NCBI GenBank assembly: GCA_965204375.1
Contig: OZ241986.1
Location: 2,176,001 to 2,240,000, forward strand
DNA length: 64,000 nt
DNA from: Candidatus Latescibacterota bacterium
GTDB taxonomy: Bacteria; Latescibacterota; UBA2968
Direction: 5' to 3'
The position numbers and the translations under genes were made by a program. Positions 42,066 to 45,250 of this stretch are shown here, piece by piece. Position 1 is the first letter of the stretch. Each line of letters starts with the position of its first letter. The notes below the pieces were generated by a model. That model was not told where the DNA came from, did no database searches, and worked only from the letters and a program-made list of their open reading frames with translations.

Positions 42066-42170
42066 AAGAAGTAAGAAGTGAAAAGTAAGAAGTGAGAAAG
42101 CCACCCCAAACCGCCTAAAGGCGGGTGCTTCATCACACTTCACACTTCTGCCTTCACACTTCACACTTCC
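42065..42170. repeat. Inverted heptamer arrays (TAAGAAG-like x5 / CACTTCA-like x5-6) enclosing a REP-like palindrome CCGCCTAAAGGCGG
   Basis: Read directly at 42065-42099, 42111-42124 and 42128-42170; the right arm overlaps the stop of the 1029-aa gene. Confidence 0.8.
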
Positions 42171-45100
42171 ATCGGTAACCCCACAAATAACCGACTATAC
42201 TCATCTGTCAACGGATCGCGCTCGCCCTTTTGCGCTGCGCGGGCAAAGACCACACCCGGCTTTTCCGACCTGCGCGCCCGCGCCAAAACGCCATATCCAC
42301 CGGGCGCACTCTGCGTTTCCAGATCGCTCTGAATCGCCAGCATCTCCGCCAGCGCATTGGCCAAACCCCAGCGCGCACCTATCGCCCGCGCAAAAAGCTC
42401 CTCTGGCGTCAGCCCCTCTCGAAAACCGTGCTTCAGGGGCGTAAACCCACCCTGATCATTCCGCGTCACGCCCTGGGGAGCCACATAAAGTCTAACCTGC
42501 TGCCAATTGGCACGCGCACCACATTCCACCAGAAGCGCGGGAATCCCGAGATCATCGTCGTCATATCCGCGAAATCGCGCCAGCACAGCCGACACCTCAT
42601 CGGGATAATCGCGCCAGACATCTGGGTCATCGCCCTCTGGTCGATCGGGCCAATCGAGCGACGAACCGATAAACGCACTCATCGACGCTCCTGTCTTAAG
42701 CGCGGCATCAAACCCTCTATCCCACAATCGCGCTGCCAGATCCAATGCAGCCTTCGAGCCATCGCGCGCTATTGCAGCCGCCATCCAGTCCATCACCTGA
42801 TACTTATCGACAAATAACCCCTTTCGCTCAACCTCATCGCCGACAATCTCCGCAATCTCCTGCAATCCCTCATCCGTCATACTCATATACGCCAGGCCAA
42901 ACAGCGCGTCGTGCATCGGGTGTACCTTCTCGCGTGCAATCAATCCCGGATCCCGCTTCAGATGCGCCACTGCCGATAGATGCGCTTCAGCCGACCGCTG
43001 TCCCTCTTCAGTCACCGGCACAAAAATCGCCACTTGATCGCCATCAAAATCCATATTCATCATCTTGCAAATCGCCACACACACGCGAATTGCCTCACCT
43101 TCCACGCGCACCGGACGACACGCCACAAAAGCCATCGGCGAAAACGCGGGATTGCGAAGCACCACGGCCCACAATTTAGCCATAGCTGCATCCAGGGCTT
43201 CCTCCGCTTTCCTCGACCGCCTATCCACTTCTTCAGCACCCACCTCTCGTGCTGCAAACGGCCCAAACAACGTCCACGCCATTTCCTCGGGCACACCGAC
43301 CTGATCGTATCGCAATTCGGGTGCAGGCACAGCCACCGAACGCCCGCTGAACAACGCCCGCGCCTGAAATTGCAAACGCGACAACTCGCAAAATGCGCGA
43401 ACCCGCTCAGACAGCGTCTCAACCGCACGATCCACCAATATATCTGGCGCACCATTGGCAATCATCTCACTCAACCGGTTATTGGCCTCTCGCAATTCTC
43501 GGGGCACATCTCTCCCACTCACATGTGTCAATGAATACCCCGGCAGCCACGGATGCGGAACCGGACGCGCAAGCGCGACATCTCCACCGCGTTTCAACGA
43601 AAACTCGGTGCCGCGTTCATCCAGTTCAACAGCCACCCCACCTCTTGCCAAATGCCCAATTAGCTCATCAAACTGAGGAGACGGCGTAGTGGGAGCAACA
43701 GACCCCGCAACGACGCGGTCAGCCAGCGTATCGGCATCATCTCGATCTACCGCACACGTATTGAACAAATCGTCAATCACCCCAAAAGCACCCGCTTCTC
43801 GCAACGCCAAAAACTCTGTCTCGCCCAACCTTTGATCGTGTTGATCCGGCTTCACACCCATGTGAATTTTATCTGCTGCCAGATGCAACGTGCGTCCCCA
43901 ATACACCCACCCCACTGTGGTGCGACGCGGCAGCGTTTTCCCATTCACCGTCAGCGTCTCCATACCATCTTCTGCCAGTTCTAAAGCCTTCAACTGCGCC
44001 CGCATCTCATCGTCTTTGGGCGCACTGAGCACAGGAATAATAACCGGCTCTCCCTCGGCCTTTGCAATGCGCCCGGCCACAGCTTCGCGCACCTGACCAA
44101 TATTCAATCGCGACGGCAAACCACACACACTCACAATAAGTTCCACAGGCGTGCCATCCGACAATCTGGGCATATCTTCATCTCGCAAAATGCGCGACAC
44201 CACACCCTTAAAACCGTGCCGATTGCTCAGTTTATCGCCCGACGCAACGCGATTGGGCAACATCATCCGGTTCGCAGCCGATTCGCTGATCACAACTGCA
44301 TCTTCGTGTGTATCACCATTCCACGCCATAAACGCGGTCAGCAAATTGTACCCCGTCCAGAAATGCGAATCGCACGGTTCACATCCCGTCTGCACCAGCG
44401 CGGGTTCCGACTCCAGTGTTTTGCCGTCATATTGCGCGTGATACGCGTGCCACACGCCTTGCTCATCGCGCTGCATATCGGGACTCGGCGCGCCAATCCA
44501 CTGCCGCATCATATTCACGCCCATCAAAACGCGATTGGTATCATTGTGTTCCAAAAACGGGACTACCGAAGCACCTATCCCCAACCGCTTTTCAGGTGCA
44601 TCGTCTTCAATCACCAGCTTGCCATCGCGAATAGTCGCCCCTTGAGCCACCTCTAAAATCCGCGCGAGATTCGGTCCCTCAGGCGTGCAATAAGGACACA
44701 CGCGCCCATCGTGCGACGGATGATAGCAATTCTCTATTCCCTCATCGGCCTCACCGATAATTGGGATCAACGTCACCCGCCGCAAATGAACGTACATATC
44801 CTGCAAATTGGTCGCCTGCAAATACTGAGAGGTCGGTTCTTCCGTAAAAAACGTGTGAATCCAATCTCCTAACGGCATCCATGTGTCAACGGCATCTCCC
44901 AGCATCTCTGGCATATTTTCCAACCGCGCGGCAATATAATCGCGCACTTGCTCGCCCACACACCGAATATCAGCACGCGCCAAATCCACATCCGTCGGGG
45001 CTGGAACCACCGTGCGAAAAAAGCCATCTACCTTAAACCGCCCCCATTCGTCGGGCTGAGGAATATCTTTGTACACAACCTCTTGCCCCCCCTGAATCGT

Positions 45101-45250
45101 GAGATGCAATTCACAGGTATATTCATCCACTGACACCACCCGATACCCCGCCAGCGATACCCGATCCGCCAACAATTCGGGCAACCCCTTTTGCACAAAC
45201 ACATCCCACGAAATTTTATGCCACGGCGCCTTTACTGAAAGACTCATCAA
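42161..45250 (-). CDS. Miniaturised single-chain RNA polymerase beta-beta' fusion paralog (not the housekeeping rpoB/rpoC)
   Basis: Colinear beta motifs: [96 protein letters not shown]. Then beta' motifs: [57 protein letters not shown]; start 45250 or 45247. Confidence 0.93.

Follow-up and report, generated by a model that had tools for sequence, protein, structure and literature searches.

How much of the cellular RNA polymerase (RNAP) can be lost from a protein that still carries its active site, and what would a bacterium with a normal polymerase do with a second one of this kind? The question is raised by a gene in a stretch of 64,000 nucleotides from Candidatus Latescibacterota bacterium (GenBank assembly GCA_965204375.1, contig OZ241986.1, positions 2,176,001 to 2,240,000 of the forward strand), the whole of which is called the window here. 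In this gene, conserved parts of the beta subunit (RpoB) are followed in one chain by conserved parts of the beta' subunit (RpoC), and its product is referred to as the mini polymerase. An earlier note, made from the DNA sequence alone, had singled it out as an accessory enzyme derived from cellular RNAP; it mentioned neither a sigma partner nor a promoter, nor that the trigger loop is missing. The mini polymerase does not stand alone: together with an extracytoplasmic function (ECF) sigma factor encoded upstream of it, it forms a conserved two-gene module.

To place the parts of the protein, a family profile (an alignment of 51 diverse full-length members) was aligned to E. coli K-12 RpoB and RpoC. 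The gene, its two halves and their landmarks lie as follows.

42161..45247, minus strand: gene of the single-chain mini RNA polymerase, with ATG 45247 as its probable start, stop 42161-42163, reading frame open from TTG 45250
43586..45247, minus strand: RpoB-derived half, residues 2-555, from the family profile against E. coli RpoB and residue mapping
42164..43585, minus strand: RpoC-derived half, residues 556-1029, from the family profile against E. coli RpoC
43391..43501, minus strand: clamp-helix hairpin, residues 584-620, from the profile alignment, with modelled helices at 584-598 and 603-620
43037..43057, minus strand: NMDFDGD, the catalytic Mg-binding aspartate triad D734/D736/D738, residues 732-738, from translation and profile
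42311..42406, minus strand: bridge helix, residues 949-980, from the alignment of RpoC 704-793 and a helix in the model

The open reading frame (42161..45250, minus strand) is free of stops and spells 1029 amino acids when counted from the TTG. The sequence AGGAGG at 45259-45254 stands 6 nucleotides ahead of ATG 45247, and most close relatives are 1028 amino acids long; because of this spacing and these lengths, ATG 45247 is taken as the start, and the true product is probably of 1028 amino acids. The one intact fused frame of the earlier note therefore stands, while its length of 1029 amino acids gives way to the shorter, more probable one. RpoB blocks followed by RpoC blocks in their native order, as the note had read them, are found alike by Pfam and by the family profile. 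The RpoB-derived half contains the N-terminal region, the block of the fork and rifampicin pocket, R240, E316/D317, the beta barrel lysines K340 and K348, R381, H456 and the beta C-terminal block. The RpoC-derived half contains the LARPVPHPW strand, the clamp helices, switch 2, the NMDFDGD barrel, the F-loop, the bridge helix and a C-terminus resembling region H. The two meet at residues 538-568, exactly where the note had put the junction, with GVAVEL followed by 12 residues and a stretch of the LA.PVPHPW type; this strand aligns to E. coli beta' HIELASPTAHIW, weakly (conditional E 0.039 among 4 sequences).

The Pfam domains of both large subunits exceed their gathering scores in the mini polymerase: RNA_pol_Rpb2_3 at residues 142-200 (22.4 bits, cut-off 21), RNA_pol_Rpb2_6 at 335-464 (E 5.8e-40, 138 bits, cut-off 23.4) and RNA_pol_Rpb1_2 at 697-755 (E 8.9e-16, 59 bits, cut-off 25.3). 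The best NCBIfam models are those of bacterial rpoB (TIGR02013, 175.2 bits) and rpoC (TIGR02386, 113.9 bits), both scores lying below the equivalog cut-offs of 801.15 and 963.5, and the archaeal RNAP models score lower still, with 135 and 46 bits. A search of solved structures gives the same picture. Domain and structure searches thus support a protein derived from RNAP of the bacterial type, though a non-canonical one.

The active site was compared residue by residue, with catalytic roles as they are generally known for E. coli RNAP. On the beta side the profile equates R240 with R678, E316/D317 with E813/D814, K340 with K1065, K348 with K1073, R381 with R1106 and H456 with H1237, and on the beta' side R699 with R425 and D734/D736/D738 with D460/D462/D464. 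In E. coli numbering, the beta residues are kept in the 51 members as follows: R678 in 51, E813 in 44, D814 in 48, K1065 in 46 (with Arg in 4 more), K1073 in 47, R1106 in 50 and H1237 in 46. Of the beta' residues, R425 is kept in 41, P427 in 44, D460 in 49, D462 in 49, D464 in 48 and R731 in 49. The catalytic residues that had been assigned by manual alignment are all borne out by this profile, each being kept in 41-51 of 51 members, and NMDFDGD sits at precisely the 43037-43057 first given for it. The switch-2 arginines are retained as well (R346 in 38/51, R352 in 45/51), as is bridge-helix R780 in 36/51, and the mini polymerase has the rifampicin-pocket residues Q513, H526, R529 and P564. 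Passages of a survey of two-barrel RNA polymerases list eight invariant active-site residues (Ruprich-Robert and Thuriaux, 2010; PMC2919709), which in E. coli numbering, by our own mapping, are beta' D460/D462/D464/R425/P427 and beta D814/K1065/K1073. All eight are found in the mini polymerase, as D734, D736, D738, R699, P701, D317, K340 and K348, and in 41-49 of the 51 family members.

Around this active site, much of the canonical enzyme is gone. The segments of RpoB that align to the family profile are 118-147, 448-579, 652-707, 794-820, 1054-1147 and 1177-1341; those of RpoC are 266-515, 575-640 and 704-793, and weakly 1321-1354. No alignment to the profile was obtained for the beta lobes (RpoB 148-447), the beta flap (RpoB 821-1053, with about 5 residues in its place), the beta' zinc finger (RpoC 1 to about 95), the rudder (RpoC about 308-334, some 25 residues) or the trigger loop and jaw (RpoC about 794-1320), and all of these are apparently absent. 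After the bridge helix there are only about 50 residues to the C-terminus, and it is these that align weakly to RpoC 1321-1354. In the passages cited above, switch 2 and the funnel are proposed as the mark of DNA-dependent two-barrel enzymes (PMC2919709); switch 2 is aligned here with its arginines kept, and the funnel block, RpoC 575-640, aligned weakly with 8.3 bits. The structure prediction proposed in the earlier note gave a confident AlphaFold2 model from the 51-member alignment (predicted local distance difference test, pLDDT, 94.2; predicted template-modelling score, pTM, 0.92). Foldseek ranks bacterial RNAP beta chains first among the solved structures that resemble it (E 3e-24); on the viral side giant-virus RNAP subunits come first, with far weaker E-values. 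As modelled, the mini polymerase shows a complete two-barrel active site on a confidently predicted RNAP-core fold.

Is such a protein a real gene product or an accident of assembly or decay? The same 6.34-Mb contig carries a canonical rpoB (a frame of 1268 amino acids, 49% identical to that of E. coli) together with a canonical rpoC (1373 amino acids, 54% identity) at about 1.911-1.920 Mb, and the window spans 2.176-2.240 Mb. The gene therefore lies outside the rpoBC context, some 300 kb from a separate canonical pair, and is accessory in the sense that normal rpoBC is present elsewhere in the genome, both of which the earlier note had supposed. To the host's own RpoB and RpoC the mini polymerase is 26-37% identical, no closer than to those of E. 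coli; it therefore belongs to a lineage that diverged long ago and did not arise by recent duplication. An assembly chimera, which the note had named as what would undo its reading, can be excluded: a full-length, stop-free frame of the same architecture recurs in 65 of the phylum's 168 genomes, including numerous chromosomes assembled as one contig, and contigs from other sequencing runs cross the junction. A decaying remnant of a duplicated rpoBC is ruled out by those stop-free frames and by a ratio of nonsynonymous to synonymous substitution (dN/dS) of 0.10-0.20, and the equal distance to host and E. coli subunits also speaks against it. Taken together, there is next to no chance that the gene is a chimera or a remnant. 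Among the contigs in question, one from an RNA library (X15 record 1, 3694 nucleotides) covers 41500-44927, across the junction, and others (X16) cover 43905-46325 (record 13) and 46366-47808 (records 14-15). These RNA-library contigs, from two studies, are 90-99% like the operon and show neither level nor ends of transcripts, and they give a weak hint of expression.

The family to which the mini polymerase belongs is large. A word-indexed protein search returned 632 homologues at E <= 0.001, and an exhaustive search of cluster representatives 366 matches at E < 1e-30. More than 120 clusters of about 1000-1070 amino acids carry the same Pfam pair (Rpb2_6 and Rpb1_2), and their named members are all labelled "hypothetical protein"; a protein atlas holds two family clusters, labelled "DNA-directed RNA polymerase family protein" and "hypothetical protein". 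No curated model specific to the family was met in Pfam, NCBIfam release 20, PHROGs or PADLOC. In one-genome-per-species collections, 434 stretches encode a relative, and the best 80 of these 434 come from Latescibacterota (43), Chloroflexota (12), Poribacteria (11), Planctomycetota (4), Gemmatimonadota (3), Armatimonadota (3) and Hydrogenedentota (1), with 3 unplaced, that is, from at least 7 phyla. Within Latescibacterota, the distribution of the 65 carriers is uneven: all 20 other genomes of the window's genus have the gene, and other genera lack it entirely (for example 0/15 and 0/8). In a FastTree tree of 80 members, phylum labels are clustered but not clean, Latescibacterota requires at least 4-5 changes, and many long branches come with warnings. 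The dN/dS values were obtained against 10 relatives and are similarly low in all four quarters of the protein, which, with the more than 120 clusters, shows homologues of the same architecture under purifying selection and not drifting neutrally.

A mobile-element origin was considered and rejected. Among 50,697 phage records there were 35 matches, and among plasmid records 68, none at >=80% query coverage in either; the matches are to ordinary rpoB and rpoC. In agreement with the earlier note, which had seen no phage neighbours, none of the 10 neighbouring proteins scanned belongs to a phage family. Irregularities are seen in three genomes: in one (G076) the complete module occurs twice, each time with a sigma gene of its own, another (G131) has a second, partial copy at a contig end, and in a third (G014) the polymerase match falls into two adjacent pieces inside one frame of 1084 amino acids. 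The atlas also holds other clusters, of 1164-1787 amino acids and with taxa unrecorded, in which Rpb2_6 and Rpb1_2 occur in one chain; their domain content suggests that other compact fused polymerases exist, intermediate in size.

The regular companion of the gene was found by clustering the open reading frames of 81 loci, namely the window and 80 others (L005-L084). Across phyla a single neighbour is conserved: a gene directly upstream on the same strand, whose product has about 200 amino acids. The operon of the window is arranged as follows.

47825..47852, minus strand: strong intrinsic terminator ending the upstream unit, just before the promoter (terminator prediction)
47795..47820, minus strand: ECF-type promoter, TGAAC at 47820-47816, 15 nucleotides, GGTGTC at 47800-47795 (motif in relatives)
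47179..47772, minus strand: gene of the dedicated ECF sigma factor, probable start TTG 47772 after AGGAGG
45290..47086, minus strand: ATP-binding cassette (ABC) exporter gene, with Pfam ABC_membrane and ABC_tran, between the sigma and polymerase genes in the same operon
42033..42065, minus strand: intrinsic terminator with a 14-pair stem and a T run, ending the operon after the polymerase gene (terminator prediction)

By its domains the upstream partner is an ECF sigma factor with regions 2 and 4 only (Sigma70_r2, E 1.8e-18; Sigma70_r4_2, E 8.1e-15; TIGR02937, 120.9 bits against a cut-off of 42.9). The profile of its subfamily has a match directly upstream and on the same strand in 78 of the 81 loci; the three others are L062, L081 and L077, the last because its contig begins at the gene. 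A strong sigma match is present in 75 loci, and in these the stop of the sigma gene overlaps the start of the polymerase gene in 27 (by 4 nucleotides in 26, by 7 in one), and the remaining gaps measure 0-30 nucleotides in 17, 31-400 in 20 and more than 400 in 11. These last 11, the loci with a large insert such as the exporter gene, are all in the window's clade, and in most other clades the two genes abut. Across the 168 Latescibacterota genomes, 62 have both genes, 3 the polymerase only, 1 the sigma only and 102 neither. The trio with a polymerase only consists of one clean deletion of sigma gene and promoter, one partial gene and one contig fragment, and the lone sigma (1/63) stands at a contig edge. 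Since these genomes hold dozens of other ECF sigma candidates each, the pairing is a specific one. Mean column identity of the sigma is 53%, and the linker between regions 2 and 4 is conserved across phyla, with P121 and W123 invariant. ECF operons usually carry an anti-sigma gene after the sigma gene; no anti-sigma gene is conserved beside the module across the 81 loci. Five loci (L064, L068, L072, L074 and L084) with frames of 1135-1238 amino acids were considered as natural sigma::polymerase fusions and rejected, as their N-terminal extensions are Arg/Pro/Ala-rich read-through of the sigma gene in another frame, not sigma sequence.

The promoter of the module is likewise conserved. The motif GAAC-N15-GGNGTC (consensus TGAAC(C/T)T ... 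CGGTGTC) stands upstream of the sigma gene in 71 of the 74 loci with enough DNA, mostly 45-47 nucleotides ahead of the sigma start, and TGAAC-N15-GG(T/C)GTC is shown by this recurrence to be a conserved promoter of the ECF type. It resembles what we take to be the usual ECF promoter, with GAAC at -35, GTC at -10 and a spacer of about 17 nucleotides. The mechanically called start of the sigma frame, GTG 47799, sits inside the -10 element, and an annotation of this longer frame therefore hides the promoter. In a position-weight scan of the 6.34-Mb genome the module site scores 33.0 and the next best 18.7; above a score of 18 there are 2 matches in the genome and 2 in a reversed-genome control. 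Exact-pattern scans of five other carrier genomes gave 3-10 matches each against 1-4 in the reversed-pattern control, and only the sigma's own site is clearly both intergenic and correctly placed; one of the five (G001) has two more intergenic matches (L104, L106), which may be true sites or chance. A wider sigma regulon was rejected, there being no convincing second site in the window's own genome or in the five other carriers, and as far as these scans show, the predicted regulon is this operon alone. Where no sigma gene adjoins the polymerase gene, two outcomes are seen: L062 has the motif directly ahead of the polymerase gene, and L081 has an intact polymerase gene with both sigma gene and promoter gone. 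An Rfam scan of 41000-50000 returned only L20_leader below its gathering score (32.8 against 58.7 bits), over the terminator region, which was taken as chance.

How does this system relate to those already known? By sequence its nearest relatives are canonical RpoB and RpoC (family profile against E. coli RpoB, E 2.3e-87; against RpoC, E 7.1e-55), and its blocks follow the order of the rpoBC operon. It keeps the catalytic and rifampicin-pocket residues, switch 2, bridge helix and clamp helices of these subunits in about 1030 amino acids, whereas they total about 2640. Beta-beta' fusions are known from Helicobacter and Wolbachia, and these are full length. Full-length RpoBC fusions, named also in Wolinella and Adlerbacteria in the passages of one paper (PMC11515920), likewise join beta and beta' in one chain and in the same order. 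Their models (NF007172, NF011417) span about 2840-2890 positions, however, and the mini polymerase scores far below them, with 168.4 bits against 5372 and 167.6 against 4632. Moreover, the full-length fusion is the only polymerase of its cell, whereas the mini polymerase coexists with normal rpoB and rpoC.

Closer in size are two enzymes from outside bacterial chromosomal lineages of RNAP. Orf6 of pGKL2, a cytoplasmic linear plasmid of Kluyveromyces lactis, is described as an Rpb2::Rpb1 fusion of 982 amino acids with about half of each subunit deleted; it keeps the two barrels, bridge helix, fork, hybrid-binding region and switch 3, and has no trigger, rudder or lid homology (PMC2919709). Going by this partial description of Orf6, to which the comparison is confined, the mini polymerase is alike in size and in the order of Rpb2 and then Rpb1; Orf6, however, is eukaryotic, plasmid-borne and presumed to stem from yeast Rpb1 and Rpb2, whereas the mini polymerase is bacterial-type, chromosomal and tied to a sigma factor. 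YonO of the Bacillus prophage SPbeta is reported, in the passages available, to be an efficient DNA-dependent RNAP without detectable trigger-loop homology, less accurate and lacking proofreading (PMC5467207). Like the mini polymerase it has a two-barrel active site, lacks a trigger loop and consists of one chain, of some 100 kDa, and as a proven RNAP it shows that a core of this kind is sufficient by itself. It is phage-borne and shares few catalytic residues with multisubunit RNAP (PMC5467207, PMC2919709), and these passages describe no sigma partner (PMC5467207), whereas the mini polymerase is genetically tied to one. BLASTP of SPbeta YonO against the family gave a best E of 13, and hhalign an E of 0.37 over 24 columns at DxDGD. 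Set beside the profile E-values for RpoB and RpoC, the lack of a significant YonO match bears out the view of the earlier note that the mini polymerase is closer to cellular RNAP than YonO-like enzymes are.

The note had also known of no description of such a protein. The full-text literature searched, which does not extend to subscription journals, held none either, neither of a short bacterial beta-beta' fusion nor of an ECF sigma paired with one. In the main text of the ECF re-classification (PMC7826278), RpoB, RpoC, Rpb1 and Rpb2 do not occur; the supplementary tables, which could list the group, lie outside that scope. Among single-chain two-barrel RNAPs, what distinguishes the mini polymerase is its place on a bacterial chromosome, its near-canonical sequence and its obligate genetic link to a sigma factor.

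What, then, does the module do? Template-directed RNA synthesis is likely, because the enzyme retains 13 catalytic and substrate residues, the block of the rifampicin pocket and fork, switch 2 and the bridge helix, and synthesis without a trigger loop is plausible because YonO is an efficient DNA-dependent RNAP without homology to one. We tentatively favor, at a little less than an even chance, an accessory single-chain minimal two-barrel RNAP that is catalytically active and is switched on by its own sigma through the host core. The sigma, loaded on host core RNAP, would fire the sole promoter of the module and thereby turn on its own gene and that of the mini polymerase; because it would fire one promoter, its regulon would be a single operon. 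The mini polymerase would then make RNA on a template without a trigger loop, as YonO does, and would work without the other core subunits. Several points weigh against this view. The catalytic aspartates are lost in two or three of the 51 members, and the activity of the enzyme is a prediction from sequence and modelled structure. A single-operon sigma without a conserved anti-sigma neighbor leaves the input signal unexplained. The motif scans were strict, and degenerate or -10-only sites would escape them; the RNA-library contigs may reflect DNA in the libraries. Finally, direct binding of the sigma would account for the kept clamp-helix hairpin and the conserved sigma linker better than a connection through regulation alone.

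The last point leads to an alternative that we regard as possible and somewhat less likely, in which the ECF sigma serves the mini polymerase itself in initiation, docked on its clamp helices and independent of the host core. Such a pair would transcribe from TGAAC-N15-GGTGTC and perhaps from further sites invisible to the scans. The clamp-helix hairpin of canonical RNAP binds sigma region 2, and in the family it is kept (N276, R278, L279, P288 and L299 are conserved) while lobes, flap, rudder and trigger loop are gone. The alternative would also account for genes that are adjacent in 78/81 loci, overlapping in 27/75 and translationally coupled, for a sigma subfamily that occurs without the polymerase just once in 63, at a contig edge, and for the linker conserved across phyla. 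Yet the mini enzyme has no flap for sigma region 4, and the promoter spacing is fixed and ordinary for an ECF sigma, which suits a flap-bearing core. R275 and E295 of the beta' clamp helices, which we take to be sigma70 contacts, are kept in the host beta' but are Ala in 39/51 and 37/51 family members. With one promoter per genome the pair would transcribe itself only, and in one genome (that of L081) an intact polymerase is kept after loss of the sigma gene and promoter, which counts for the host core as promoter reader. A complex prediction with a shortened polymerase chain (residues 240-1029) and the whole sigma scored 0.21 (mark 0.32) and gives no verdict. It is also conceivable, though improbable, that the fused protein is a regulatory decoy, placed where an anti-sigma gene would stand, which imitates the side of core RNAP that binds sigma, thereby sequesters the sigma in negative feedback, and whose catalysis is vestigial. 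Gene order and the 4-nucleotide overlap are like those of sigma/anti-sigma pairs, no other anti-sigma gene is conserved in the 81 loci, and the clamp helices are retained. A decoy, however, would need the clamp helices alone, and for this reason the conservation of the whole protein speaks against it: about 1000 residues are maintained, including both barrels, the bridge helix and the 13 catalytic and substrate residues (41-51/51), with dN/dS similarly low in all four quarters.

Returning to the favored reading of an active accessory enzyme switched on through the host core, the module would provide a second polymerase of cellular lineage, cut to roughly one third of the usual length, which selection maintains in hundreds of species and which is tied to its own sigma and promoter. 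It is a natural experiment in a minimal beta/beta'; YonO and the yeast plasmid enzyme are both far more remote from the cellular enzyme. It also offers a bacterial-type active site on which the role of the peripheral RNAP domains can be tested. In the case of a sigma that acts as a switch only, some undiscovered cellular process in bacteria associated with sponges, soil and groundwater would depend on a polymerase of its own. Should the sigma turn out to be the partner instead, this would be a ready-made compact orthogonal transcription system: the sigma and the 1028-amino-acid protein might, as the somewhat less likely case, constitute a self-contained two-polypeptide holoenzyme of about 140 kDa beside normal RNAP in more than 400 species, one that would need no alpha, omega, flap, lid, rudder or trigger loop.

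Two further genes closely precede the sigma promoter and form a unit of their own, which the terminator at 47852-47825 closes.

48815-49846, minus strand: P0269, 343 amino acids, DksA/TraR-type C4 zinc finger, predicted cytoplasmic
47878-48825, minus strand: P0270, 315 amino acids, no family, predicted cytoplasmic

P0269 stands beside the module in 19 of the 81 loci and P0270 in 17, in the window's and related Latescibacterota clades only. Proteins of the DksA/TraR type bind RNA polymerase, and by analogy the two could be clade-specific accessories of the module. A role in defence was rejected for the polymerase, P0269 and P0270, for which PADLOC returned 0 families; for the sigma it returned two weak matches to CARF models (E 0.0012 and 0.0046), which were taken as chance.

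Short repeat arrays resembling GTGAAGT/CACTTC flank the module, at 42070-42160 in the window and upstream in L009, L016 and L023. In all four runs mapped, the bin 41968-42201 has more than 10 times the depth of its neighbors, and the element is therefore present in many copies in these metagenomes. The polymerase operon is directly followed downstream by a BlaI-type repressor gene (41554-41940, minus strand) with its own promoter-like site. It adjoins one of two genes for BlaR1 (peptidase M56) proteins fused to repeated TonB_C domains (39107-41554 and 33503-35404, both minus strand), between which a WG-repeat protein (37891-39042) and a HEAT-repeat protein (35951-37768) are encoded. GC skew is strongly negative (about -0.23) for the greater part of the 64 kb, with weak values near 16-24 kb and 28-32 kb, and most long open reading frames lie on the minus strand.

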